Virus record (IMG/VR): IMGVR_UViG_3300045988_024297 | Span: 1 to 32,758 of that record | Origin: a virus | Length of the DNA stretch: 32,758 nucleotides | Strand: one strand, 5' to 3' | Part shown: positions 2,059-32,758 of the stretch, piece after piece | How positions within the stretch are numbered: position 1 is the stretch's first letter | How the letters are laid out: the number at the start of each line of letters is the position of its first letter | Made by a program: the position numbers and the translations under genes | Notes under the pieces: model-generated | Told to the model about the DNA's origin: nothing | The model's input: the letters and a program-made list of their open reading frames with translations, nothing else | Database searches by the model: none

Positions 2059-2685
2059 CTAAATGCCTCCTAGCTTCTGTAGGTTCTTAACCGCATCCTC
2101 GGAAAGCACGTTAACCTGCATAGCCTTCGTGCCCGCCTCCTTGCCGTTGCTTGTAACGTCCTTAAGGTCTCGTAGTCCTCTAAGCTTTGCCATGTAATTG
2201 GCATCAACCACCCCAGCAAGAGCGCTTTCGTCCATATCGGTCGCAATGAGTTCGGCGATAAGGGCGTACCCGGTCAATAGGTTGGCCGCGTCCCCGTTCC
2301 CATCCTCAGCCAGCTTTTCAAGCCGTGCGCCGTTCTTCTTGAACGCTTGCAAAGTCCACCCGATGAAAAGGCAGAAGCCGCCAAGCGATGGCGCGCGCTT
2401 CTTTTCTATAGGTACTTTCTGACCTGCTGCGTTTCCACCCTTTAGGACTTCATACGTGATGAACGGGTTTCGCGCGCAAAAGTTCATGTACTCGGCTACG
2501 TAATCTACGCACTCCTCTACGGTAGACAACGTTGCGCCTTTACAACCGCGCGTCTGCACGACTTCATAAAGTTCTTTGCATGCCTTCAAATCTGTTTTGG
2601 GGGCGGGGGCTTTGCCCGTCGCTTGTCCCTTGGTAATTGCCGCTTTTGTATCCGGGGCGGCTTCCTTCTTTGCTCTTCCTGCCAT
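2059..2685 (-). CDS. terS: terminase small subunit (putative)
   Basis: First gene of the late block, 3 nt upstream of terL. K/A-rich N-terminal tail and a PSLGGFCLFIGWT helix-turn-helix-like segment, as seen in small terminases. Confidence 0.6.
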   Translation of the reverse strand: MAGRAKKEAAPDTKAAITKGQATGKAPAPKTDLKACKELYEVVQTRGCKGATLSTVEECVDYVAEYMNFCARNPFITYEVLKGGNAAGQKVPIEKKRAPSLGGFCLFIGWTLQAFKKNGARLEKLAEDGNGDAANLLTGYALIAELIATDMDESALAGVVDANYMAKLRGLRDLKDVTSNGKEAGTKAMQVNVLSEDAVKNLQKLGGI

Positions 2686-2706
2686 ATTTTTGTTATTTGG
2701 TATTTA

Positions 2707-2806
2707 AGGTATCGTACGTGTGTGCTCGCGGTCTCTTAAAGAGACGCGCGAGTAGTATTCGGACTATCCCGGTATTGGGACGGCTCGGGCTTCACGGACG
2801 ATACCT
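2707..2806 (-). other. GC-rich structured leader between the putative late promoter and terS
   Basis: A 9-bp closing helix (2707-2715 / 2798-2806, AGGTATCGT/ACGATACCT) encloses an 11-bp hairpin with a 1-nt bulge (2725-2735 / 2741-2752) and a weaker TCCC/GGGA hairpin (2767-2780). Confidence 0.4.
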
Positions 2807-2839
2807 CGTAGTTCGTATTAACTGTTTTCAACCATGGCA

Positions 2840-2847
2840 CAAAGGTA
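2840..2847 (-). promoter_or_regulatory. putative late-operon -7 box TACCTTTG
   Basis: Plus-strand CAAAGGTA is TACCTTTG on the coding strand, the only TAnnTTTG match in the 660-bp gap upstream of terS. TTGG lies 19 nt upstream. Confidence 0.4.
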
Positions 2848-2980
2848 GGCAACAAATCGCGCCGGACCAACCTACGGTCAGTTAGGCCTTTTCTACAAAT
2901 AAAGTTTACAAATGAATTATATTTACATGGTTTTGGGCGTGAGCACGCTAACAACCTATCTTACTGAACGTTACAAGCAC

Positions 2981-3190
2981 TTACACAGACACACACTTTT
3001 TTTTCTAAACTTTAATATAGAGAATAGTATATTTTATACCCTCCGAAATACGCTTTTCTCCAGAATAATGTTTTAACCCCTTTTTATCTGTGTATCTGTG
3101 TAATTACATATAATATATTATGATATAAGGAGTTAGAGTGTACAAAAAACGACACAGTAGTGATTTTTTACTGTGTAACTGTGGTTAAAT
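2981..3190. repeat. composite non-coding element, copy A (partner at 19089-19312)
   Basis: The core 3054-3150 matches 19178-19273 with 2 substitutions and 1 indel over 97 nt. Tandem TCTGTGTA at 3087-3102, inverted copy at 2981-2996, AT palindrome at 3110-3121, hairpin at 3152-3176. Confidence 0.9.
3143..3176 (-). terminator. rho-independent terminator T2(A), part of the repeated element
   Basis: Minus strand reads ACACAGTA-aaaaatcac-TACTGTGT followed by CGTTTTTTG. Confidence 0.6.
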
Positions 3191-3221
3191 TCTGTTAATT
3201 TTTGAAGCTCTTTTTTCTGTT

Positions 3222-3267
3222 TATAAACAAAAGCCCAAATCTGACATTTTGTAATCAGATTTGGGCT
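3222..3267 (-). terminator. rho-independent terminator T1(A) ending the early block
   Basis: Perfect 13-bp stem AGCCCAAATCTGA/TCAGATTTGGGCT with a 10-nt loop, followed on the minus strand by TTTGTTTAT. Confidence 0.8.
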
Positions 3268-3286
3268 AATCGCTATCACTTGACTT

Positions 3287-3346
3287 GACACGTCCTTCAA
3301 GGGCGCTGACATTTGGTTCGACACGTCCTTTGAAGGTGCTTACATT
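3287..3346. repeat. two 27-bp imperfect direct repeats (period 33 bp)
   Basis: GACACGTCCTTCAAGGGCGCTGACATT (3287-3313) versus GACACGTCCTTTGAAGGTGCTTACATT (3320-3346), 22/27 identical. Each holds a CCTT..AAGG mini-palindrome. The second overlaps the stop of the 131-aa gene. Confidence 0.7.
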
Positions 3347-3740
3347 ATGTCAATTTCCACCCGAGCGAATCCCGATGCCAGTACCACGTCTGGACTGTTC
3401 CGTCCTTGAACGTGGATACCCTTTTTATCCTTCCTTCCGGGTCTATTCCGTAGGTTCTTGATATGTCCTGCTCGTTTCTTTTCTCCTCGGCTAACCGGGC
3501 TTCGTCTCTGATAAGATACTGCCTTTTATTAAAGGGCTGTTTATACGTGAAGTCCTGGGCGGCTACATACTTTGCCAGCCTATCAATCCAACCGTTGCAA
3601 AGATTGGCCTCCACATAACCGCGCCCGTACTTATCCTTTGCTACCCCGGCGGTATAACCGTATCTCCGTATGAACTCCCATATGATGAATACGTGGCAGT
3701 TGAGGCATACCGCCATATCCATAAAACTAACTTTCCTCAT
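3345..3740 (-). CDS. hypothetical protein, 131 aa (last gene of the early block)
   Basis: ATG-initiated ORF overlapping the upstream gene by 14 nt and followed by tandem terminators. Confidence 0.6.
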   Translation of the reverse strand: MRKVSFMDMAVCLNCHVFIIWEFIRRYGYTAGVAKDKYGRGYVEANLCNGWIDRLAKYVAAQDFTYKQPFNKRQYLIRDEARLAEEKRNEQDISRTYGIDPEGRIKRVSTFKDGTVQTWYWHRDSLGWKLT

Positions 3741-4482: not shown

Positions 4483-4620
4483 TCAGCCGTCCCCGTGGTC
4501 TACGCCCAGTATAACCCCGTGTATGTCGTTCCAACCGACTACCACACCAGCATACTCACCGTTCTTGTTGAATACCGCACGCCCTGCGTACAGCATCGCG
4601 AAATCTCTGTTTCTAATCAT
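4483..4620 (-). CDS. micro-ORF, 45 aa, ending at an in-frame TGA
   Basis: The ATG at 4620 sits behind a conserved promoter and leader (TTTAAAAACAGAAGATTATG). Translation: MIRNRDFAMLYAGRAVFNKNGEYAGVVVGWNDIHGVILGVDHGDG*. Confidence 0.45.
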   Translation of the reverse strand: MIRNRDFAMLYAGRAVFNKNGEYAGVVVGWNDIHGVILGVDHGDG

Positions 4621-4646
4621 AATCTTCTGTTTTTAAATTGCTAATA

Positions 4647-4688
4647 CAAATATAACGCTTTTCCCGTTATGTTGGTTCTTTCGTTAAC
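4647..4688 (-). promoter_or_regulatory. early promoter, conserved class (copy a)
   Basis: Coding strand: GTTAAC-gaaaga-ACCAAC-ataa-N12-TATATTTG, with exactly 28 nt between GTTAAC and the -7 box. Confidence 0.65.
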
Positions 4689-4689
4689 A

Positions 4690-4830
4690 TCATTTAAGTA
4701 TTAAACTATCCTTCAGTGATAGCCCGTACTCTAACTGCTGTAGCTTGAAATTACGTTGTATGCTGTCCGCGGCGTTCTGTACTACGGTGCAGCCTACCAA
4801 TAGGAGTAGGACTGCTATTAACTTTTTCAT
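4690..4830 (-). CDS. micro-ORF, 46 aa, predicted lipoprotein (not in ORF track)
   Basis: The ATG overlaps the SNF2 stop (ATGA). Translation: MKKLIAVLLLLVGCTVVQNAADSIQRNFKLQQLEYGLSLKDSLILK*, with a signal peptide and an LVGC lipobox. Confidence 0.5.
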   Translation of the reverse strand: MKKLIAVLLLLVGCTVVQNAADSIQRNFKLQQLEYGLSLKDSLILK

Positions 4831-6900: not shown

Positions 6901-7143
6901 TTACTTCATTAATTTTGTTTTATAGAACACACAAATGCTTTTGAAATCCTGCTCCTCCGATATATACCCAAGCGTTTTACGCGAAAGGAAATTAACGTCT
7001 CGGGTGATATCGCGTTGCAACTGGTTTAGTATTTCCTCGGTGTTACCGAACTTATCGTCGCGCACATACAGCGCGCCGGACTTGATACCGAAGTACATAC
7101 CTAAACGGTATTCTATTTCTTCTTTTAAACTTCTCTTTTTCAT
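6901..7143 (-). CDS. hypothetical protein, 80 aa
   Basis: ATG ORF directly behind a conserved early promoter and leader. Confidence 0.6.
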   Translation of the reverse strand: MKKRSLKEEIEYRLGMYFGIKSGALYVRDDKFGNTEEILNQLQRDITRDVNFLSRKTLGYISEEQDFKSICVFYKTKLMK

Positions 7144-7166
7144 GATTTCTGTTTTTTAATTTGATA

Positions 7167-7505
7167 CTACAAAGATAACCCTTTTCCCGGTACGTTGTTT
7201 ATTTCCTTAACATTTCTTAAGAAGAAACTTATTGCAGCGTCCCGGCTTTCCAAATCGTCGATAACAAATACTTTGAAGCCTAAAGCCTCCAACTTGCTGT
7301 GTATCAGCAATTGTATCTTGGTTGGTTTCTTACCCGTGGTCTTTATCTCGGCGAAGCCTACATACCCACCTTGGCAAAGTATCATTCTATCCGGCAAACC
7401 TTTTATAAAGGTGGATAATAGTTTTATTACCCACACCTTTTTTGTTCGGTTAAGCTTTTCAGAGAATGTACGCTCTAAATCTTTTTCACTTATTATTTCC
7501 TTCAT
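7167..7505 (-). CDS. VRR-NUC family nuclease
   Basis: GLPDRMIL...GYVGFAEIKTTGKKPTKIQ matches the VRR-NUC core (PD...E-x-K...Q). Typical partner of SNF2 in this replication module. Confidence 0.72.
   Translation of the reverse strand: MKEIISEKDLERTFSEKLNRTKKVWVIKLLSTFIKGLPDRMILCQGGYVGFAEIKTTGKKPTKIQLLIHSKLEALGFKVFVIDDLESRDAAISFFLRNVKEINNVPGKGLSL
7170..7211 (-). promoter_or_regulatory. early promoter, conserved class (copy b), embedded in the 3' end of the VRR-NUC gene
   Basis: GTTAAG-gaaata-AACAAC-gtac-N12-TATCTTTG with 28-nt spacing. Confidence 0.6.
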
Positions 7506-8811: not shown

Positions 8812-9222
8812 TTAATTTTCCAACGCCTCAACCATTTTCCTAAGTTCTCCGCGGCTTATGGCTATACTGAAAATCTCCGTTAACTTCTCGGTGATTACCC
8901 ATGTGCCATTCAGCTTTTGGAAATACGCTTCATTGTTGCTCGGGTTGTTTAGGTTCACCGTCTCGCCCTTACTGGGTTTGTATTCTGCAAGGCTTGCAAG
9001 CGTTACCGCCGCCTCCTTGGGTGTACCTAAATGGACTTTCATTATATACCTTTCGGTCTCACGCGTTACTGCCTCGATGGTTATCTCCCCGTTAGTATCA
9101 ACCAATTTGCAGACGCCCATACGGAACGATTTCAGTACATCGGGTTTACCCTGCGACGTAATTTGGCTAAACATTGATACACTTGTAAAAATTAACACCG
9201 CTAATACTACTAACTTTTTCAT
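8812..9222 (-). CDS. secreted protein, 136 aa (signal peptide)
   Basis: The N-terminus MKKLVVLAVLIFTSVSMFSQ is a typical Sec signal. It has its own promoter and an approximately 350-nt leader. Confidence 0.7.
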   Translation of the reverse strand: MKKLVVLAVLIFTSVSMFSQITSQGKPDVLKSFRMGVCKLVDTNGEITIEAVTRETERYIMKVHLGTPKEAAVTLASLAEYKPSKGETVNLNNPSNNEAYFQKLNGTWVITEKLTEIFSIAISRGELRKMVEALEN

Positions 9223-9577
9223 AATCTTTTGTTTTTTAAATTGTTATACTATATAAACGTTTGCGGCTCTGAAAAGGTTCGCCGCTTTCCCTTTTTCTTT
9301 TTAAAAAACTATTCGGCGTCTGAATCCCTTTCACTTTTCAGTCTTTCCCTTTCGGGTATCGTGCTCTTGGTTTTGGTGAAGAGCAGCCTCTTAGTTTTTT
9401 GTTTGTTGTAAGGTTTCTAAAGATTCGAGCTTTATAGCTTCATTTAATCGGATACCGAACTTTCATTTAACCCTTTCGAGATACGTTTGCTTTTTTTCTC
9501 GTCTTATGAATTTAATCTTTTAACCAGCCTTTTGCGTTTTAGTAAGCTGATGGGGTCTTTAGTTCCTTTCAACACTA
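9223..9577 (-). other. long untranslated leader or ncRNA with GAAAGGG repeats
   Basis: No ORF longer than 8 codons. GAAAGGG (coding strand) occurs at 9471-9477, 9347-9353 and 9326-9332, with a partial copy at 9289-9295. Hairpins TGCTCTT/AAGAGCA and GCGGC/GCCGC. Confidence 0.45.
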
Positions 9578-9619
9578 CAAATATACGGCAAATAACGATA
9601 GGTTGTATATTTTGTTAAC
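9578..9619 (-). promoter_or_regulatory. early promoter, conserved class (copy c)
   Basis: GTTAAC-aaaata-TACAAC-ctat-N12-TATATTTG with 28-nt spacing. Two more GTTAAC sites lie just upstream (9654-9659, 9665-9670). Confidence 0.6.
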
Positions 9620-9699
9620 ACCATTTAAGAAATAAATCTCATTTAGTTATTCTGTTAACAGTTAGTTAACATCTGGGGGCTTTTACACCCCCTCTGTTA

Positions 9700-12138
9700 T
9701 CACTCGTTAACAATACGCTCAAACCCTCGTGCGCGTCCGATACCCATAACTGACTTGGCATCTGCCGAACGTTTCCACCCTGGTATCTTAGACATGATGG
9801 CAGCTATTTCCCTGCTCTCTTTGGCAGTTACGCGCCCTACCTCCATCTCGAACACATCCGTAGCGATTTGCATGGTAGATACGAAGTCCATTTTTTCCAG
9901 TGTAAAATCTTCCGGGTCTATCTTTGACGCGTCGTACTCCCTAAAGTACATGCGTCGCTCATTCAAAAACATGCGCCGCCAATCCGAGGGCACAAGCATG
10001 TTCAAATATGCCTCTACTGATGCCGTACGAGGGTCTGCCTCGAAATGCTCTTCGCGTCCTCTCTCGGCTATTGCTTCGGCTTCACGGGATAACAACGTAC
10101 TTACTTTGCGGAAATACATTTGGACTGCCTCGGCCCAAAGCTGGTCTACATATTCGTCGAACTCCTTCTCAAAGATAAGATGTGTATTGGCGTTTGCCTT
10201 GACCTTCACTGGCAAAAAGCGTCTGCCGCCCGTATCGTCCTTTAGAAATTCGTCCCGGTTGGTTGTACCTATAAATATACATTGCCTGGGGAAGTTCTTA
10301 GTAACACGTCCGTATGCTGGTCTGAAGCTGTCCTCTGTTTTAGAGATGAAGTTTTTCACGCCCTCAACTTCTGAACGTCGCATTGCCGACAACTCGGCTA
10401 CCTCCAATATCCAGTTACCCTGCAATTGTTCAAACGCGCCCTTACCATCCATACTTGAAAGGCTATCAGAGAACCATTGCTTACCCAGCTTTCTGATGAA
10501 TGTGCTCTTTCCTGCGCCCTGCTCGGACTGGAGCACTAACATGCTATCGAACTTGCAGCCCTTTTGAAAGATACGCTTAACTGCCCCTACCATCATAATT
10601 CGGAATGCTTCTCGGGTGTATATGTTATCCTCGGCGTCCATGATGTGAATTAAGGCCTTATCAACTCTTTCGATACCATCCCACTTTAATTTTGTTAGGT
10701 ATTCCTGCACTGGGTGGAAAGAATTCATTTCCGCGGATAGTGCTATGGCATCGTCAATCTTCGCACTGTTGGATATGCCGTACACGTCTTCAATGTGTTT
10801 ACGTACACCCGAATAGTCCACGTCCTGGAAGTCCAAAGAACTATCCTTTGCACGCCAAAGGGGTACACGGGTAACAACCCGGCGTTCTTTAAATAGGTCT
10901 CGTGCAATAAGCCCCTTTAAATTGGGGTCATACTTCATTATCAGCCCTAAATTCTTTGCGGATGGTAGGTAAGCGCCGCGCTTATCGGTTTCGAGCTTTG
11001 CCATTGCGTCCTCGTACGTAGTTGCCACATCGGCATCCGTCGCTTCCTCTACTTCTATAACGTCGTCGAAATCGTCCATGATTTCACCAGCCTTAACTGC
11101 CAGCATACGGGCGCGCGCCGCTGCCACCTTTGCATCCTTGTTTACCAACTCGTTCATGGCTTCGGTGGAGTTCTTCCTATCCGCGCCCTTATCCAACTTA
11201 CCGAACTTGTGTACACGTACAAGGTCATAGGCGTTGAACACGTGGTTGCCTTGTATGGGGTCGTTGTTGTGGAACGAATAAGCGAACATATCGTTAAAGG
11301 TAAGCATACCGCCCGAAGTAGACCCACCCGTATACGTCCATCTGTCTTCCTGCTCGGTAGGTTCGTAAACGTCTGGTAGGTATTCCGCGATAACCTCGCT
11401 AATCGTGTAGGCCCTGCAAAAGTCGCCTACATTACCCTCTTTTAGCGTGGGGTCTTGTTGTTCTTTAGCAAGCGTCCGGGCTTCTCCCTTCTCGTCCTTG
11501 TGATATGCCCATTCGGTTGTATCGCTCCAATCGTCGTACATGCCCAAATACTTCTGCACGTCCAAAGGGTTTTCATTGAATGCCGAGTAATCTATAAACT
11601 CATATTCCACGTCTTTGGAAACCGATGGGAAAAACATGCAGCGCTCGGGTTGAAAGGTGGTGCGGTCGTACAAGTCGATACCCGTCAACTCTGCAACCTT
11701 TCGGGCGATGGCTTCGTATTGTTCCCCGTCCACTGGTTCGGACAACGGAATGATAACACGGTATCTAAGCGTATTGGCTTTCGGGTTATGCTTGTGCGTA
11801 CCGTGTATGATACACGCGCAATTGATAACCGAGTAGAACGCTTCCGGGAAGTTCTTTTCCCCGTAGTCAATGTCAAGCGCCAATATAGAGCGCTCACCGA
11901 CATTGTTTTTGTTTCTACGGCTACCGAACAATTCGCCACCCATGAACGCGCCTACGTCTTTAATATTACCCTGCTCGGCTTTGCTTGCGCTCATGAACTC
12001 CCGGTACGTCTCATCCGTAACGACTGCCCGTGTCAGCTTCTCGGTTAACTCGTCCCATGAGTAGGAGCGGTTTTTCCACGAAGTAGATTTCGCGCTGCTT
12101 GCTGTAGCAATTTTAAAAACCATTTTTCGCAAATCCAT
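9700..12138 (-). CDS. bifunctional AEP primase-polymerase / VirE(D5)-type helicase
   Basis: N-terminal AEP motifs (LALDIDYG, IIHGTHKH). C-terminal P-loop QSEQGAGKSTF and a Walker-B-like ILEVAEL. 812 aa. Confidence 0.85.
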   Translation of the reverse strand: MDLRKMVFKIATASSAKSTSWKNRSYSWDELTEKLTRAVVTDETYREFMSASKAEQGNIKDVGAFMGGELFGSRRNKNNVGERSILALDIDYGEKNFPEAFYSVINCACIIHGTHKHNPKANTLRYRVIIPLSEPVDGEQYEAIARKVAELTGIDLYDRTTFQPERCMFFPSVSKDVEYEFIDYSAFNENPLDVQKYLGMYDDWSDTTEWAYHKDEKGEARTLAKEQQDPTLKEGNVGDFCRAYTISEVIAEYLPDVYEPTEQEDRWTYTGGSTSGGMLTFNDMFAYSFHNNDPIQGNHVFNAYDLVRVHKFGKLDKGADRKNSTEAMNELVNKDAKVAAARARMLAVKAGEIMDDFDDVIEVEEATDADVATTYEDAMAKLETDKRGAYLPSAKNLGLIMKYDPNLKGLIARDLFKERRVVTRVPLWRAKDSSLDFQDVDYSGVRKHIEDVYGISNSAKIDDAIALSAEMNSFHPVQEYLTKLKWDGIERVDKALIHIMDAEDNIYTREAFRIMMVGAVKRIFQKGCKFDSMLVLQSEQGAGKSTFIRKLGKQWFSDSLSSMDGKGAFEQLQGNWILEVAELSAMRRSEVEGVKNFISKTEDSFRPAYGRVTKNFPRQCIFIGTTNRDEFLKDDTGGRRFLPVKVKANANTHLIFEKEFDEYVDQLWAEAVQMYFRKVSTLLSREAEAIAERGREEHFEADPRTASVEAYLNMLVPSDWRRMFLNERRMYFREYDASKIDPEDFTLEKMDFVSTMQIATDVFEMEVGRVTAKESREIAAIMSKIPGWKRSADAKSVMGIGRARGFERIVNE

Positions 12139-15982: not shown

Positions 15983-16045
15983 AATAACTTTTTATTGTTT
16001 TTGCCCTCTAATCGGTTCGGGCGTTCCGTTTTTAATTTGATGTTG

Positions 16046-16087
16046 CAAAGATAACAAATAAATCAATAGGTCGTTTATTCTGTTAAC
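16046..16087 (-). promoter_or_regulatory. early promoter, conserved class (copy d)
   Basis: GTTAAC-agaata-AACGAC-ctat-N12-TATCTTTG with 28-nt spacing. Confidence 0.6.
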
Positions 16088-16412
16088 CTTGTTTAACTTT
16101 AAAAGTTTTTGGTGCTATCGAAATAGCATAATCTAAATCACTTTGGTCTGCCATACATATTGTATACTCTGGACTCTTCCTTCCGTATGCCCTAAGGCTA
16201 TACACGTATGCTTTATAGCCATACTCTTCTAACTTTCTAATAGCCTCAATCTCGCCCAGGCTGAACTCCTTTATAGCTACCAAAAGATTTTGCATGTCTT
16301 TAGAGGTTCTTTCAAGTTCTTTTTTAGTCCATGTGCGGAATTGCTTTTTGTTCCAAAACTTTGTTCTTGCTTGAATCTCTTTCTCCGTTAAAATACCGTT
16401 GCTACTTTTCAT
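16083..16412 (-). CDS. hypothetical protein, 109 aa
   Basis: ATG ORF behind a conserved promoter and leader. Confidence 0.6.
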   Translation of the reverse strand: MKSSNGILTEKEIQARTKFWNKKQFRTWTKKELERTSKDMQNLLVAIKEFSLGEIEAIRKLEEYGYKAYVYSLRAYGRKSPEYTICMADQSDLDYAISIAPKTFKVKQG

Positions 16413-16438
16413 ATCGTTTTGTTTTTAAATTGATAATG

Positions 16439-16480
16439 CAAATATAACGCTTTATCTGATAGGTTGGTTCTTTCGTTAAC
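16439..16480 (-). promoter_or_regulatory. early promoter, conserved class (copy e)
   Basis: GTTAAC-gaaaga-ACCAAC-ctat-N12-TATATTTG with 28-nt spacing. Confidence 0.65.
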
Positions 16481-16485
16481 TTCTT

Positions 16486-17664
16486 TTAAGAATTTAATTC
16501 GTCGAAGTCGTCAATAGTAGGGCTTAATTCTTCCCTCTTATCGCTTTCCGGGGCTAACGTTGGCAGTCCTTGCGGCTTGACTATCAGCCCGTCAAGTGTT
16601 GCGGCGAGCGGCTTTTTACCAACCAGGCGTTCAAGGTCTCCAATACCTTTCAGTTTGCGGTTAGTTATGTCCTCGGTAGATAACCCGATAGCCTTTAGGC
16701 GTTCTATGGCTGTTTCCGCGTCGTTTATGACACGCGCTGACCTGCCCTCTACAAGCTTCCACCCCTTAACCTTTTCGCCTCGTAGGGCGGCTTGCATTGC
16801 AAATGTTTTGACCGATGCCAGCCAGTCGGTGAACATATCGGACTTGCTTAATATGTCCCCTATCTCGTCAAGAGTTAACGCCTTGGTGTCCCCGTGTGTC
16901 TCGAACTCGCTAACTAAAGCCTCTTTCTGTGCCCTGCATTGCGCTTTGAACTTGCAGAACTTACAATGACTACCTACTTTGGTTTCCCCTTGTCCTGCCC
17001 ATGCCTTCTCCGCGGTGGGACGTAGTACGTGTATCGCCCAGTGGGTCAAGTCCCGTGCGGACATTTCAAATACCGAGTAATTGCCTAACCGTACTTGTGC
17101 GATGTGCATACGTACTTTTTCAATCTTCGAGCGGTGGGGTGGTTCCAAGGAGTTAAGCGCCCCTACAGCATACATCATTAATTGACTATTTCCGTCAGCG
17201 TCTACTTGTACGCCCTTACCGTATTTTAGGTCTATGATGTTTAGAACTGTCTCGCCTACTATATCACAGTCACAGCTACCGAAACACTCGGGTACGTATG
17301 TGGTTAGGTCGAACTTTCGCTCTATACTCATTTTAGCGCCTTCCTCCAGCTCGTATATGTCGCACACATAGCACACGTAATCCGTTACGTAGTGTTCCAT
17401 TTCCGAACTATAGTATTTGTTGTTGCGTATCTCATTGGGTACGGGCAATTCGTCCAATAGCGGTAAATATTCTCCGGCTAAATACTTTTCTATGGCGTAT
17501 TCTGCCAACTCATGCGCTACTGTTCCTTCTTCTGATGCCGCGCTACTCGTGCTTTCGTATGGTTCTTCCAGCCGTGCGGATGGTGTGCAGTTAAGCCATC
17601 GGTGTGAGCTGCTCGGGGAAAGTAGGGCGTGTGCCCTACTTGTGTGGTCTACTTGTACTTCCAT
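16486..17664 (-). CDS. PD-(D/E)XK nuclease, Cas4/DUF2800-like with a Cys cluster
   Basis: IIDLKYGKG (D-x-K core), N-terminal Cys (WLNC) and C-terminal CKFCKFKAQC (C-x2-C-x5-C). I prefer the ATG at 17664, 4 nt after the upstream stop, over the TTG at 17688 given in the track. Confidence 0.8.
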   Translation of the reverse strand: MEVQVDHTSRAHALLSPSSSHRWLNCTPSARLEEPYESTSSAASEEGTVAHELAEYAIEKYLAGEYLPLLDELPVPNEIRNNKYYSSEMEHYVTDYVCYVCDIYELEEGAKMSIERKFDLTTYVPECFGSCDCDIVGETVLNIIDLKYGKGVQVDADGNSQLMMYAVGALNSLEPPHRSKIEKVRMHIAQVRLGNYSVFEMSARDLTHWAIHVLRPTAEKAWAGQGETKVGSHCKFCKFKAQCRAQKEALVSEFETHGDTKALTLDEIGDILSKSDMFTDWLASVKTFAMQAALRGEKVKGWKLVEGRSARVINDAETAIERLKAIGLSTEDITNRKLKGIGDLERLVGKKPLAATLDGLIVKPQGLPTLAPESDKREELSPTIDDFDELNS

Positions 17665-17668
17665 TCTT

Positions 17669-18256
17669 TTAGTCGTTATAGGTTTCAATACGTTGTTTTA
17701 ATAGCTCGTACTTCTCGGGCTTGATACGCATAAGAGACGCGCCGCCGAACTCCAACATGATATCCGTCAATTGCGGGCGGGTGATTTTCCCGGTTTTCAT
17801 TAAATCAATCATGAACGCCTGCATGTCCTTTGCCGTCAGGGGCTTGTTTGAGGCTTTCTCCGGGGCTTTCTCCTCTTCAACGGGAGCTTGTACGGGTTCG
17901 GGTTCAATCGTCGCTTGTGGGGCTTCCTTTACGGTCTTTGGATTTACGGGCTTTGGATTTACGGGCTTTTCAGCCTTTACGGGCTTTTCAGCCTTTACGG
18001 GCTTTTCCATTTCCTTTTTAACTTCGGCGATAGCTTCGGTAATCGTTTCTTGCTTCGGCTCTTCTTGAACGGGTGCGGCGGTCTGTGTAGGCTCGCTAAA
18101 CGTTGGTACGCTTGTACTGGTTACGGGGCTTTCTGTAGGCACTTCCATAGCCTTAAGCGGCACGCTTCCAAATAGACGGTTCATAAGGTCATTTACAAAT
18201 GCTACTTCTTGTTCGTTTGTAACGTCAAAATCAATTGTTAACGGTGTAATCTTCAT
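17669..18256 (-). CDS. hypothetical protein, 195 aa, with a Pro/Lys-rich repeat linker
   Basis: ATG ORF. The central segment KPVKAEKPVKAEKPVNPKPVNPK is encoded by tandem DNA repeats. Confidence 0.6.
   Translation of the reverse strand: MKITPLTIDFDVTNEQEVAFVNDLMNRLFGSVPLKAMEVPTESPVTSTSVPTFSEPTQTAAPVQEEPKQETITEAIAEVKKEMEKPVKAEKPVKAEKPVNPKPVNPKTVKEAPQATIEPEPVQAPVEEEKAPEKASNKPLTAKDMQAFMIDLMKTGKITRPQLTDIMLEFGGASLMRIKPEKYELLKQRIETYND
17936..18001. repeat. in-frame tandem repeats (15 bp x2, 18 bp x2) inside the 195-aa CDS
   Basis: CTTTGGATTTACGGG at 17936-17950 and 17951-17965. CTTTTCAGCCTTTACGGG at 17966-17983 and 17984-18001. Confidence 0.9.
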
Positions 18257-18288: not shown

Positions 18289-18564
18289 TTATGCTTCTTT
18301 GATTTGCTCGGCCTCCAAAATTGCTTGTGCAACCTTGATTATCGTCTCATTATAGAACTCTTCCCACTCGTCGCAGTAGATATACATTTCCTCAACGTTC
18401 ACGGGGTATTTCGTTCCTTCCATTGTAGAGACGTAGTAAGGGAGTATAAACCCCTCGAACGTCGGCATTTCCTGCACTGCATCAATAACTTGGTATTTGT
18501 TCTTCCTCGCACTTGCCTGCAAATGCTTTTTCACTTCGTCGATAATAAACTTTTGCTCTTTCAT
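18289..18564 (-). CDS. small acidic early protein, 91 aa
   Basis: ATG ORF behind a conserved promoter. D/E clearly exceed K/R. Confidence 0.6.
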   Translation of the reverse strand: MKEQKFIIDEVKKHLQASARKNKYQVIDAVQEMPTFEGFILPYYVSTMEGTKYPVNVEEMYIYCDEWEEFYNETIIKVAQAILEAEQIKEA

Positions 18565-18590
18565 AACTTTATCTTTTTAAACTGTTGATG

Positions 18591-18632
18591 CAAATATAAC
18601 GCTTTTGCAAATACGTTGGTTCACTTGTTAAC
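18591..18632 (-). promoter_or_regulatory. early promoter, conserved class (copy f)
   Basis: GTTAAC-aagtga-ACCAAC-gtat-N12-TATATTTG with 28-nt spacing. It overlaps the stop of the 74-aa gene. Confidence 0.65.
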
Positions 18633-18845
18633 CTTATTTAAGAAAATAGCTTCCATAAGGTCCTGCATGTGCTGGTATCCCATACCGTTGTATTGGTATG
18701 CTTCAAAGCTGCCGTTACGGCGTACCTCCGAGAAGGTATCGCTATACTCGTTGCCTGCCTCGTCTATAAATACTAATACGTGGCTCTTCATCTCGAACTG
18801 ACCCTCGGTCAGCGTTTCCCTAAAAATTAAATCAATTGCTTTCAT
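18621..18845 (-). CDS. small acidic early protein, 74 aa (first gene of the early block)
   Basis: ATG ORF downstream of two candidate promoters. Confidence 0.6.
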   Translation of the reverse strand: MKAIDLIFRETLTEGQFEMKSHVLVFIDEAGNEYSDTFSEVRRNGSFEAYQYNGMGYQHMQDLMEAIFLNKVNK

Positions 18846-18871
18846 ACTTTGCTTCGTTTTATACGTTAATA

Positions 18872-18879
18872 CAAATCTA
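18872..18879 (-). promoter_or_regulatory. putative -7 box TAGATTTG proximal to the first early gene
   Basis: Plus-strand CAAATCTA, preceded on the coding strand by GTGAACAAGTAAGAACG, which resembles the upstream half of the conserved element. Confidence 0.4.
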
Positions 18880-18966
18880 CGTTCTTACTTGTTCACGGTT
18901 ATTTCCCAATTTAATGTCTTGGTGACCTCATGCCTTCCGGGAAACCCTTGTTTCCTTTTGACATTG

Positions 18967-18996
18967 CAAGGATACGGCAAATATCAATAGGTTGTA
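18967..18996 (-). promoter_or_regulatory. early promoter variant (copy g)
   Basis: TACAACCTAT-N12-TATCCTTG, near-identical to copy c through TTGCCGTAT. It lacks GTTAAC at the canonical spacing (ATTAAC at 19008-19013 instead). Confidence 0.45.
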
Positions 18997-19088
18997 TCTC
19001 TTTTTGTGTTAATAAATATTAATCAAAAGTGAAAAGATGTAAAGGAACAGTCGATGCAGGCTAAAGTGCTGATAATCAGAGACGGGCG

Positions 19089-19312
19089 TTACACATACAC
19101 AGATACACACATGTTTTCGTAAACTTTAATTTCGGATATTGTGGTTTTTACAGTCCGTTATATAGTGGTAAATGCTATTTTCTCCAGAATAATGTTTTAA
19201 CCCCCTTTTATCTGTGTATCTGTGTAATTACATATAATATATTATAATATAAGGAGTTAGAGTGTACAAAAACCTGCACAGTAGAGATTTTTTACTGTGC
19301 AGCTGTGGTTAA
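19089..19312. repeat. composite non-coding element, copy B (partner at 2981-3190)
   Basis: Core 19178-19273, tandem TCTGTGTA 19211-19226, inverted iterons 19096-19109 (14/14), palindrome TATAATATATTATA 19233-19246, hairpin 19274-19302. Confidence 0.9.
19266..19302 (-). terminator. rho-independent terminator T2(B), part of the repeated element
   Basis: Minus strand reads CTGCACAGTA-aaaaatctc-TACTGTGCAG followed by GTTTTTGT. Confidence 0.65.
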
Positions 19313-19315
19313 CGA

Positions 19316-19356
19316 ATGTGAACAAAAAATGGAGAACTGTTAACAGCCCTCCATTT
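19316..19356 (-). terminator. terminator T1(B) ending the late block
   Basis: 8-bp stem AAATGGAG/CTCCATTT with a 14-nt loop containing GTTAAC, followed by TTTGTTCAC. It begins 6 nt after the stop of the last late gene. Confidence 0.55.
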
Positions 19357-19361
19357 CCTAA

Positions 19362-19952
19362 TTATTTTAGCTTTACCGCTAGGTCTATATCTATCTTTGT
19401 TTTGGGGTTTTTGTTAGATATGTCGTGCTCTATAGCCTTGACCCCCCATCTGAAAAACAAAAACTTTTTCTTTCGGACTGTAATAACACCCGTTATCGTG
19501 TCCCTACCTTGGTAAATAAGTTCCGTACTGTCTTGCCTAAGCTTTGCTTGTATCGTGTTCCATGCGTCCCGGTATTCCGCTATAAGCTCCCCGGCTAAGG
19601 TATCAGTACGCACCACCTCCTTTATTACGGTCTTGGTAACGGTACGGGTCGCCGATAACGCATCTTTCACTCGGACATTTAGCGCATCCACCTCTTTATA
19701 TAGGTCTGCGTTCGTTTTCTTTAGCTCCTTGTGCGACATCTCTAAGGCTTTACGCTTCACTGCCGCATCTCCGAGCTTGGTTTTGTACTCTATCTGCACG
19801 TCGTTCATCGCCTCAACGTTACGTTCTAAACGTCCTATTTCGGCTCTTTGCTTCCTTATGGTGTCTACCATCTTGGTTACCGCACCGAACAACACCATAA
19901 GGACTGCAAAGCCTATAATTGTCTTTTGTGGTTTACTCATAGCAAATTGCAT
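19362..19952 (-). CDS. membrane-anchored coiled-coil protein (spanin-like or lysis accessory)
   Basis: N-terminal TM segment (TIIGFAVLMVLFGAV) followed by a long K/E-rich helical region. It is the last gene of the holin-endolysin cassette. An alternative ATG lies at 19940. Confidence 0.5.
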   Translation of the reverse strand: MQFAMSKPQKTIIGFAVLMVLFGAVTKMVDTIRKQRAEIGRLERNVEAMNDVQIEYKTKLGDAAVKRKALEMSHKELKKTNADLYKEVDALNVRVKDALSATRTVTKTVIKEVVRTDTLAGELIAEYRDAWNTIQAKLRQDSTELIYQGRDTITGVITVRKKKFLFFRWGVKAIEHDISNKNPKTKIDIDLAVKLK

Positions 19953-22849: not shown

Positions 22850-23416
22850 TTAAGATGCGGGGGCTTCTGCTGGTGTGACCAACGCAGCATAAGTCGCCTC
22901 GTCTATGTAATGAACCGTCGTACCTACTTGCCAATCCTCTACGCCATAAGTGTATGTTACTTGGTCGCTCGCGCTTGAATCGCCGGACAACTCGGTACAA
23001 ACCAGTGGAGCACCCAAGCCGTAAATCTTATAGCGACCACCGTCATGCTTTACCGCGAATATGAGTTCAGCGTTAGCAAGTCTACCTACGCCGCCAAGAG
23101 GTGTTCCTAAGCTCGTCAAATCTCCGTGCCCGGAAAATGATTTGAACGTTATTGTGACGTCGTAAGCTCCCGGAATAATGTCCTGCGATTTGAGACCTAC
23201 CGTTATCACCATTGAGTTATTAACAGTAGTAAGGTCATACCCGACCGTTGTAGCTACCCTCGTAATGCTCGCCACTGCGGTATTCGGGTCTACTGTAAAG
23301 CTCGCGATGTCCGATGCGTTAATTACCCGTGCGCCTAATATCTTCCCCAAATCGGGGGTTCTCGGAGCACCACAAGGCATCACCAACCCCGAAGCTATTT
23401 TGCCAATACATGCCAT
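22850..23416 (-). CDS. paralogue 3 of a tandem virion-protein triplet (188 aa)
   Basis: MACIGKIASGLVMPCGAP...INASDIASFTVDP. It shares the C-x11-C N-terminus and the ADIASFTVD block with paralogue 2. Confidence 0.7.
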   Translation of the reverse strand: MACIGKIASGLVMPCGAPRTPDLGKILGARVINASDIASFTVDPNTAVASITRVATTVGYDLTTVNNSMVITVGLKSQDIIPGAYDVTITFKSFSGHGDLTSLGTPLGGVGRLANAELIFAVKHDGGRYKIYGLGAPLVCTELSGDSSASDQVTYTYGVEDWQVGTTVHYIDEATYAALVTPAEAPAS

Positions 23417-23447
23417 ATTATTTTTTCCTTTCTTTTTTAGTTAATTA

Positions 23448-23987
23448 TTATCCTACTGCTGCCGCGTACAATTCCGCGTATACCGATGACGGCATGTCTA
23501 AAGTGTCTTCTCCAATCACGTTTTCGGGTGTTTCCAAAGTGATTGTAGTCCAGCTACCGTTATCGTGCGAGTTGTTATCCGCCGCGGTGGCGGACATACC
23601 GTAATACAGACCGTAGACGTGCGGCGATGTATGCGCGGCACTTTTAGCTATAATAACGAAAGACCCGTTAGTAAATGCCGCCACGGTGCTACGCACACCA
23701 TCATTAAACTTTTCGGTGAGCACCATCGTAGCGGAATGTGAGTGTGCGTTCGGCGCGCCGTCGTTAACCTTTAGCGCGGAAGATAAAACGAGAGAACGCT
23801 TAACTGTGTCGATTTTGTAAGCTTTCGCCCCAGGAGCTAAGGTAATGACGGGAACTAACTTATTGCTGCTGTCAACGGTAAAACTCGCGATATCCGCTTT
23901 ATTTATAATCAACGCGCTAACTAAACCAGTCGCGCCGCTGTCGCAATCATAGGCAATTGCGTTTGCCAATTTTGAAATACATGCCAT
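23448..23987 (-). CDS. paralogue 2 of a tandem virion-protein triplet (179 aa)
   Basis: MACISKLANAIAYDCDSG...INKADIASFTVDS. Confidence 0.7.
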   Translation of the reverse strand: MACISKLANAIAYDCDSGATGLVSALIINKADIASFTVDSSNKLVPVITLAPGAKAYKIDTVKRSLVLSSALKVNDGAPNAHSHSATMVLTEKFNDGVRSTVAAFTNGSFVIIAKSAAHTSPHVYGLYYGMSATAADNNSHDNGSWTTITLETPENVIGEDTLDMPSSVYAELYAAAVG

Positions 23988-23991
23988 ATCT

Positions 23992-24528
23992 TTAACCTCC
24001 TACTTTTGCTTTGATTGAATCCATCGCTTCCTTCGAAATAGCCATAAAGTAATTACCTGCCGAACCTTCCGGGGCTGATAGTGTAACGGTAGCCAACCCC
24101 GCATTCGCATTGCTGTCCCCATCCATCCCGGAGCACTCCAATGGGGATATATAACCGACTAATGAGCGTGTACTGTCATTGCGTTCGACGGCCACATAGA
24201 ATTTCCCAGCCAGTAGCGAGCGTATCCGCCGATAGTCGGCATCCGCAATCATAGGCATTTTGAACACTACTGCAATATCTAATTTCGCGGAGGCGTCCAT
24301 AGCTCTGACGGAAGATGTGATTTGTATGTTTTGTTTATACCCTTCCACAAGAATCACAGCCGCGCCGGGACTCACCGAAGCGCTCGCTATGTCAATCCTA
24401 TCTGTGCCCCCTACTGTAAACGTAACGTCCTCCGTGTGCATCAGATAGATGTTTTTAATCCCTACCGGGTTGAAATTACATGCAACCGTGATATTGCCGC
24501 TAAGTTTATTCAAACAACTTTTTCCCAT
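23992..24528 (-). CDS. paralogue 1 of a tandem virion-protein triplet (178 aa)
   Basis: MGKSCLNKLSGNITVACNFNP...IYLMHTEDVTFTV. It has the same C-x11-C spacing and similar length, and is the most diverged of the three. Confidence 0.65.
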   Translation of the reverse strand: MGKSCLNKLSGNITVACNFNPVGIKNIYLMHTEDVTFTVGGTDRIDIASASVSPGAAVILVEGYKQNIQITSSVRAMDASAKLDIAVVFKMPMIADADYRRIRSLLAGKFYVAVERNDSTRSLVGYISPLECSGMDGDSNANAGLATVTLSAPEGSAGNYFMAISKEAMDSIKAKVGG

Positions 24529-32594: not shown

Positions 32595-32758
32595 TCACGC
32601 CCCGTACTTGTAAGCGTCGAACGTTGCCTCCCAGCCCGATTTGATGGTGTCATACTGGTTCTGCACTTTGGCGATACGCAGCGAGCCAATCTCGTAGCCG
32701 CATATGAAGCTTTTAAGCATCTCATGCAAAAGCAAGTCGGTACGTATCAGCGTTGCAA
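32595..32758 (-). CDS. 3' part of the wrap-around 134-aa CDS (32704-32758 duplicates 1-55)
   Basis: In-phase continuation of the frame leaving position 1. Stop TGA at 32595-32597, followed by TAA one codon later. Confidence 0.55.
   Translation of the reverse strand, partial: ATLIRTDLLLHEMLKSFICGYEIGSLRIAKVQNQYDTIKSGWEATFDAYKYGA
32704..32758. repeat. 55-bp terminal overlap, identical to 1-55
   Basis: See feature 1-55. Confidence 0.95.

Follow-up and report, generated by a model that had tools for sequence, protein, structure and literature searches.

The alpha protein of satellite phage P4 was reportedly described, together with ori and crr, by Ziegelin et al. in 1993 and 1995, and replication of P4 requires ori plus crr. 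In the Staphylococcus aureus pathogenicity islands (SaPIs) the Rep proteins are self-loading initiator-helicases, whose C-terminal winged helix recognises iterons of 5-6 nt, and their origins carry 6-12 iterons, of which no fewer than two lie to each side of an AT-rich centre, in opposite orientations; in SaPI5 a primase is fused to Rep (PriRep5) (PMC9371898). Bacillus phage SPP1 has two similarly organised origins, oriL and oriR, with repeats and an AT-rich unwinding element, one origin-binding protein serves both of them, and the proposed trigger for the change to concatemer synthesis is a fork stalled at gp38-bound oriR (PMC6316719, PMC3485210). Here we analysed a stretch of viral DNA of 32,758 nt (IMG/VR record IMGVR_UViG_3300045988_024297, positions 1 to 32,758), which is referred to as the window throughout and which holds two copies of a non-coding element, copy A (2967..3198, minus strand) and copy B (19080..19322, minus strand). 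From sequence comparisons we argue that each copy is probably an iteron-type replication origin for the phage's own self-loading primase-helicase, an 812-aa protein encoded at 9700..12138 on the minus strand, whose C-terminal winged helix varies together with the repeated word of the element.

Layout, placement and conservation of the two-copy element

A preliminary description, made from the letters of the window, had outlined a 97-nt core at 3054-3150 which recurs at 19178-19273 with 2 substitutions and 1 single-base gap, and our alignment returned the same figures. The core was correct but the true unit is larger, ~230-240 bp, with ~100 bp more in each copy. The limits of copy A come from aligning it to copy B and to 20 orthologues, and alignment likewise showed that the parts of copy B follow the order of copy A. 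The repeat finder reported the pair 3046-3188 / 19170-19312 at 92% identity and a weaker block, 2978-3036 / 19092-19150, at 75%. Each copy holds at least seven occurrences of the word (G/A)CACAG, in both orientations, and two inverted pairs of sites surround a 35-bp tract of 17% G+C. The motif RCACAGW has 19 matches in the window. The two elements cover 1.4% of its length and contain 10 of these matches, against 0.17 expected (Poisson P about 5e-15).

Read along the transcribed minus strand, copy A starts with two forward sites, s1 (3179..3186), an iteron-like word AACCACAG which is also the consensus and which becomes GCCCAC in GACCAG-type phages, and s2 (3170..3178), the iteron TTACACAGT, with the consensus (C/T)T(G/A)CACAGT. 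An 11-nt A-rich loop leads to the inverted iteron s3 (ACTGTGTCG, 3150..3158; transcribed-strand consensus ACTGTG(C/T)), followed by T6, and then to s4 (3138..3146), also inverted, which is TCTGTGCAC in most relatives and degenerate (TTTGTACAC) in the window. Next comes the AT-rich tract (3103..3137), a candidate DNA-unwinding element with 6 G/C in 35 bp; the previously noted tract 3101-3128 does contain two G/C and the perfect palindrome ATAATATATTAT at 3110-3121. On its other side lie s5 and s6 (TACACAGATACACAGAT, 3086..3102), tandem forward iterons whose consensus is TACACAGAT twice with an 8-nt period, followed by a conserved spacer (2997..3085) and by s7 (2980..2996), two inverted iterons GTGTGTGTCTGTGTAAG complementary to s5+s6. 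The corresponding minus-strand sites of copy B are s1 at 19303-19310, s2 at 19294-19302, s3 at 19274-19282, s4 at 19262-19270, s5+s6 at 19210-19226 and s7/s8 at 19088-19110, its AT tract being at 19227-19261; s7/s8 consists of two or three inverted units. The interval from s6 to s7 measures ~90-100 bp, B copies having 10 nt inserted in it, and contains the near-invariant sequences TAAAACATTATTYTGGA (3056-3075 in copy A) and AAAGTTTAG, part of which is recognisable even in relatives with a 73-76% identical primase-helicase. A promoter, priming sites or a site for a host factor could be located in this spacer.

The tandem 8-mer TCTGTGTA at 3087-3094 and 3095-3102, its inverted match TTACACAGACACACAC at 2981-2996 and the hairpin arms at 3152-3159 and 3169-3176 were all found where they had been placed. 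What did not survive was the treatment of the hairpin arms, of the AAGGAGTTAGAGTGTAC block before the AT tract and of CTGTGGTTAA as separate parts, since they are instead further copies of one word, namely s1-s4, with s2 forming the 5' and s3 the 3' arm of that hairpin. In line with the statement that no open reading frame (ORF) explains the conservation, the copies differ by indels of 1 nt and 10 nt that disrupt the frames. ORFs are called across the element in the window (3133-3324, minus strand), in PQ571283 (19553-19777) and in PQ571281 (33455-33658), with strands that differ; owing to the indels these are probably spurious, and a conserved small ORF within the element was rejected for the broken frames and the differing strands of the annotated ORFs.

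Positions 1-55 and 32704-32758 of the window are identical over 55 nt, which indicates that the phage genome is complete in the window, circular (or circularly permuted) and 32,703 bp long; all long ORFs in the window ORF list are on the minus strand. Copy A lies in a gene-free stretch which, as first described, is bordered by the points where ORF 3345..3740(-) stops and where terS, at 2059..2685(-), starts. In the direction of transcription it runs from 3198 down to 2967, directly downstream of the intrinsic terminator of the early operon (3228..3267, minus strand, a 14-bp stem then a T run), and terS comes next. Copy B runs from 19322 down to 19080 and is preceded by the end of the late operon, where a hairpin and T run (19323..19355, minus strand) kept in relatives was seen by eye, and is followed by the first early gene; a terminator pattern scan of 18700-19500 called nothing, this hairpin included. 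The element thus marks both junctions of the early and late modules, each copy sitting between the end of one operon and the next operon. The early-to-late position of copy A had been recognised in the preliminary description, while the late-to-early position of copy B had been missed. The distance between the two copies around the circle is 16.1 kb one way and 16.6 kb the other.

The element is conserved in close relatives, as a BLASTN search returned 13 records of Bacteroides uniformis/xylanisolvens siphophages, each matching in at least two places. We fetched 10 of these 13 matching records, and an A-type and a B-type copy were present at the same two junctions in 10/10 of these isolate genomes. 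Since in these independently sequenced isolates both copies are joined to their own unique flanks (10/10), an assembly artefact, which the preliminary description had named as a possible undoing of the element, is ruled out. IMG/VR contigs, dozens of which carry both copies, were retrieved with a 17-nt invariant from the spacer, and with these added the collection comprised 75 distinct element copies. About 13 B copies have another, still AT-rich, sequence in place of the AT tract, and this is easier to reconcile with an unwinding element than with a promoter. More distant phages (one locus per group: L160, L162 and L181) likewise have the element twice, and the two copies flank the replication module at a distance of 15.5-17 kb from each other. 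Their words differ, being TGGCACAG where the primase-helicase is 76% identical, TGTCACAG at 73% and CTATTACAC at 43%. As the most distant locus, L181, keeps the two-copy element with another word, the architecture is older than its sequence. At 3290-3560 and 18780-19060 of L181 the word CTATTACAC recurs in tandem arrays of 12-nt units (CATCTATTACAC twice), accompanied by the inverted copies GTGTAATAG.

Switching of the iteron word and its link to the primase-helicase

Phages differ in the iteron word, and when it changes, every site in the two copies changes in concert. Within the close family the word is TGCACAG in most phages, TTACACAG in the window and its nearest relatives, and GACACAG in some. 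In BU183P1 and three metagenomic contigs from IMG/VR every site of both copies is GACCAG, with the inverted sites being CTGGTC or CTGGGC. The sites s2, s5 and s6, which have the same orientation, change the word jointly (7/7 vs 68/68). Moreover, copies A and B match each other better within a genome than between genomes in the motif columns (0.85 vs 0.73), the other columns giving 0.79 vs 0.76. The co-switching of sites in the same orientation and the matching of motifs within a genome argue for a trans-acting reader of the word, and not for wholesale gene conversion or a single helix. An all-against-all analysis of column covariation in the 75 copies was abandoned, as it was swamped by the split between A-type and B-type copies.

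The gene for this reader was sought by comparing, across ~49 contigs, the divergence of 1721 protein segments of 20 aa, drawn from all 46 ORFs of the window, with the divergence of the motif columns; a spurious ORF overlapping the element, which supplied 3 of the top 30 segments, was set aside. Of the rest, the segments that tracked the word best lay in the primase-helicase, which accounted for 17 of the top 30, at aa 461-495 and 706-810, and which still supplied 13/30 when the GACCAG clade was removed. Segments at aa 461-495 correlated with motif columns at rho 0.64 and with non-motif columns at 0.15. This region includes Q478R (nt 10705-10707), where the four GACCAG contigs all have R and 22 others have Q; residue 478 lies outside the winged helix, on the N-terminal border of the VapE-like helicase domain. 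In a column-discrimination scan of the 46 ORFs the primase-helicase alone stood out, and no regulator or small protein was found to track the word; scanning in reverse, from 51 ORFs of BU183P1, disclosed no gene specific to the BU183P1 type that tracks it.

The identity of this protein was supported by several lines of evidence. Pfam placed a VapE-like domain (PF05272) at aa 481-698 (2e-79), and PHROG 256/9765 covered it as primase in the N-terminal half and as helicase over the full length. With phmmer a single match was obtained in the PDB, 7PDS, the complex of SaPI1 Rep with DNA (E=3e-78, aa 393-732). An AlphaFold 2 (AF2) model of aa 647-812 had a per-residue confidence (pLDDT) of 82-92 for most of the C-terminal part and ~70 at the extreme C-terminus, and showed helix, helix and a beta-hairpin wing; the model rests on a shallow alignment, as a homologue search with the C-terminal 166 aa gave 8 matches. 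When this model was compared using Foldseek, the only significant matches were six chains of 7PDS, at E about 2e-6 and over the whole 166-aa length, followed by weak matches to the winged helices of forkhead, IRF and PerR. Thus, combined together, Pfam, phmmer and AF2/Foldseek describe a superfamily 3 (SF3; VapE/D5-like) helicase with a C-terminal winged helix of the SaPI type, the latter at aa 741-812 (9703..9918, minus strand).

The C-terminal signal of the scan is centred on a hypervariable patch, aa 791-796 (9751-9768, minus strand), in a primase-helicase which is otherwise 95-98% identical among these phages, and in the AF2 model this patch is the tip of the wing. Tips with an acidic residue at 793 (SADAKS, AAEARP, SAEAKA) go with the word TTACACAG, those with Arg 794 (AAGRRA, SAGRKA) with GACCAG, AANARP and AANAKP with GACACAG, and AANGKT, SAGQKA, SAKARP, SARQIA and others with TGCACAG. 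In the larger locus set the correspondence was near one-to-one. Asp or Glu at 793, carried by three wing haplotypes, was present in 8/8 contigs with TTACACAG and in 2/46 otherwise (Fisher 4e-8, uncorrected for phylogeny), and Arg 794 in 4/4 contigs with GACCAG against 0/50 (Fisher 3e-6, likewise uncorrected). The more distant primase-helicases, at 76%, 73% and 43% identity, carry other wings paired with other iterons. It is this co-variation by itself which speaks for a cognate specificity, that is, for a word matched to the C-terminal domain of its initiator.

A candidate replication origin weighed against other functions

We argue that if the two elements are origins, the early-made 812-aa protein, in which an N-terminal primase, a helicase of the SF3/VapE type and a C-terminal winged helix are joined, would bind the 6-8-nt iterons through the wing and recognition helix of the latter. 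With s3 and s4 inverted on one side of the AT tract, s5 and s6 in tandem on the other and s1, s2, s7 and s8 outside, hexamers assembled on both sides would load themselves on melting the tract, and primers made by the primase domain would be elongated by the phage PolA. Of the two sites, both may fire, or the second may be an initiator-bound barrier or an auxiliary cis site, roles proposed for oriR of SPP1 and crr of P4. A stalled fork could then be processed by exonucleases, an SSB/annealing protein and a VRR-NUC nuclease, which the phage encodes according to annotations in the isolate records. This mechanism draws on homology and co-variation. The preliminary description had already suggested origin-like inverted iterons round an AT-rich tract, served by the phage primase-helicase, and this suggestion has been strengthened by the co-variation of the wing and by the homology to SaPI Rep.

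Several observations weigh against an origin. The element copies are 6.5 and 6.9 kb from the initiator gene and not adjacent to it as in SaPIs; a window-wide motif count disclosed no cluster of RCACAGW beside the primase-helicase gene. The 90-bp spacer is far more conserved than an unwinding region requires, and the origin model leaves it unexplained. The structure 1KA8, which we take to be the origin-binding domain of P4 alpha, was absent among the top 50 fold matches listed. As regards the co-variation, the association tests carry no correction for phylogeny, the independent switches are few (roughly 4-5 in the close family and 3 deeper lineages), and with the GACCAG clade removed four low-diversity tape-measure segments ranked first, with a comparably high non-motif correlation. 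Finally, the inverted arms show compensatory changes in the style of base pairs, and copy A of BU1-1/BU3-1 has a matched double change between s3 and s5, so that a hairpin, cruciform or RNA role could coexist with origin function; extrusion of a hairpin or cruciform at the origin is possible. GC skew is uniformly negative across the window and, as all genes are on one strand, is uninformative as an origin marker.

Being present at both operon junctions, the element could alternatively be a transcriptional control module. The AT tract would then be a promoter, the s2/s3 hairpin and the T run after it would act as a back-up terminator, and the words would be operators for a regulator of the early/late switch at the two operon boundaries. 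A sigma-70-like TGTACA-16-(C/T)ATAAT is found on the transcribed strand of both copies and a T run follows the s2/s3 hairpin in the window. However, the primary sigma factor of Bacteroides recognises TTTG at -33 and, at a spacing of 19-21 bp, TAnnTTTG at -7, and reading by eye gave no correctly spaced TAnnTTTG/TTTG match on either strand of the element, while TAnnTTTG does occur in a separate repeat family upstream of early genes. The sequence containing TATAAT is replaced in about 13 B copies, the T run is missing in about half of the relatives (GGTCTCTG, GGTTGCTG), and the s2/s3 hairpin, with 3 G-C pairs, a 9-nt loop and no call in the scan, does not have the features of an intrinsic terminator. 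Besides, no regulator or small protein co-varies with the word and among plausible candidates only the primase-helicase does so, which also tells against the operator that the preliminary description had offered as an alternative. We consider this explanation unlikely; it is compatible with the origin reading in so far as transcription may activate an origin, or an origin may serve as an insulator too. The base-paired appearance of the arms might instead be due to a structured RNA in both operon leaders, acting in nut/put-like antitermination, as a processed small RNA or as a stabiliser, and made of the s2:s3 hairpin and a helix of 13-15 bp between s5+s6 and s7. The inverted arms are 91% paired over 18 copies, with 8 pairs changed on both sides where 0/500 shuffles reach that number, the copy A segment folds at z=-4.0, and nutL/nutR of lambda and putL/putR of HK022 are likewise two copies at the starts of two operons. 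But the opposite strand folds equally strongly (z=-4.9) and copy B weakly (-1.8), and the low folding energy therefore reflects the inverted repeat alone. Furthermore, s2, s5 and s6, which as direct repeats are unable to pair mutually, switch jointly, the arms of the GACCAG type are not fully complementary on either strand (GACCAG vs CTGGGC), which leaves the long helix 10/13 pairs, and the word is tracked by a protein domain, which base pairing would not require. RNAalifold gave no convincing conserved structure in the 105-nt interior, and Rfam returned nothing credible, either for the whole window at gathering thresholds or for 2600-3400 at permissive thresholds. The nut/put-like RNA entertained in the preliminary description is thus disfavoured by the same-orientation co-variation, the lack of an Rfam match and the lack of conserved structure in the interior, and an RNA as the main function seems to us rather improbable. 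The window contains no tRNA or tmRNA genes.

Still less credit can be given to a packaging (pac) or recombination site read by a terminase or recombinase. Copy A is directly upstream of terS, and repeated boxes are present in known pac regions such as that of SPP1, but copy B is half a genome away from terS, neither TerS nor TerL has any column or segment that tracks the word, and the ends of the isolate records are scattered, as in circularly permuted genomes, and lie off the element except for one assembly overlap. As to recombination, no integrase or recombinase was annotated in the records of the 10 relatives or found among the 11 window proteins scanned. Three further candidates were rejected. 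The word resembles the 3' part of the DnaA box TTATNCACA, and s1 (TTAACCACA) matches it at 8/9 positions, yet phages of the GACCAG type on the same host species lose this resemblance. A mimic of a CRISPR repeat (Cas12a-like TCTACTGT) is a chance 8-mer not kept in relatives, and a template/variable repeat of a diversity-generating retroelement would not suit a genome with no reverse transcriptase and a pair of copies neither of which is coding.

Returning to the origin reading, phages with different wing variants share one host species, on which they circulate together, and are 95-98% identical in other respects. We suggest, quite tentatively, that the pairs of wing tip and iteron may be specificity groups under diversifying selection, by which origins are made private against co-infecting relatives, and that the second copy may be an initiator-bound boundary which couples replication to the early/late switch or triggers the theta-to-concatemer transition. 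If true, such privatisation of origins would be a phage analogue of plasmid incompatibility. We know of no replication origin for any cultured Bacteroides siphophage, and the literature that we searched assigned none to this group of gut Bacteroides siphophages. An origin together with its cognate initiator domain would open replication in an abundant group of gut phages to direct tests and would provide an engineering handle, in the form of origin-bearing shuttle constructs or phagemids for Bacteroides. The paired variants of wing and iteron, some of which differ by one base and one or two residues, are a data set on DNA reading by winged helices, and the two-copy layout, kept at 43% identity of the primase-helicase, raises the question why a small phage keeps two origins.

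Neighbouring features and comparison with known systems

Beyond the stop codon that ends the last early gene, and ahead of the early terminator, two tandem 33-nt repeats occupy 3271-3336, each with a short palindrome (CCTTCAAAGG / CCCTTGAAGG) and then GACGTGTC. From copy A to the start codon of terS extends a G+C-rich leader of 270 nt (2690-2960, minus strand) with strong folding (minimum free energy z=-3.06), in which the late promoter, and perhaps a pac site, may be located. In C2_18_80S2P, BU241P1 and BU241P2 the intergenic region between copy A and terS has an insertion of ~650 bp, with an ORF annotated there in BU241P2. The second repeat family, of 6-8 copies, is situated just upstream of early genes (4608-4705, 7131-7228, 9219-9262, 9576-9636, 16016-16104, 16400-16497, 18552-18649 and 18952-19005) and reads, on the transcribed strand, GTTAAC..AACCAACGTA..(T)TATATTTG, ~30 nt and then ATG. 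As the Bacteroides -7 motif TAnnTTTG is present in it, it probably represents host-type early promoters with a phage-specific upstream box; it is present in the distant relatives L160, L162, L168 and L184 as well. In the head-tail region, three consecutive late genes (22850-24528) encode proteins 50-76% identical to their orthologues in the isolates, the flanking structural proteins being 93-98% identical, which marks this stretch as a local hot spot for divergence or for the exchange of modules. Where the window has the gene region 17669..18256, an early gene of some distant relatives has long in-frame tandem repeats rich in Ala/Lys/Glu, at 4001-4193 in L160, 3477-3701 in L168 and 4630-4713 in L162, with periods of 33 nt, 15 nt and 18-24 nt, respectively.

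Among the systems known to us, the nut sites of lambda (nutL/nutR) and the put sites of HK022 (putL/putR) are alike in having two similar copies near the starts of two operons, each with a hairpin. They act as RNA and need no repeated word, whereas the sites described here are a word which is independent of orientation and tied to a DNA-binding domain. SPP1 is a lytic siphophage with two similar regions, one of which is intergenic in the late module, and in that it resembles the present phage, as judged by its sequence. The two systems are not homologous, the SPP1 initiator gp38 is a separate protein which needs the loader gp39 and the DnaB-type helicase gp40, and oriL lies inside gene 38. In P4, primase, SF3 helicase and a C-terminal winged-helix origin-binding domain are united in one polypeptide, which binds direct and inverted octamer iterons in two separate cis regions. 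The present phage has this order of domains and two iteron regions, which its winged helix would bind; ori and crr, however, differ in structure and are ~4.5 kb apart, while the two phage copies have a near-identical layout and lie about half a genome from each other.

The closest likeness is with the Rep and ori of SaPIs. The helicases are homologous, the C-terminal folds match, the primase is fused as in PriRep5, and the iterons are short, numerous and placed on both sides of an AT-rich centre, with s3/s4 inverted and s5/s6 forward round the tract and s1, s2, s7 and s8 as outer sites; in both the word matches the variant of the initiator. The SaPI origin, on the other hand, is immediately downstream of the initiator gene, whereas the phage copies are 6.5-7 kb away and two in number, the phage element has extra sets of outer iterons and the strongly conserved spacer of 90 bp, and its carrier is not a satellite but a virulent-looking Bacteroides siphophage with its own PolA. 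Taken together, the comparison supports the view that the element has the layout of a SaPI-Rep-type origin, here duplicated, and that its putative reader is a winged helix which has co-evolved with it.

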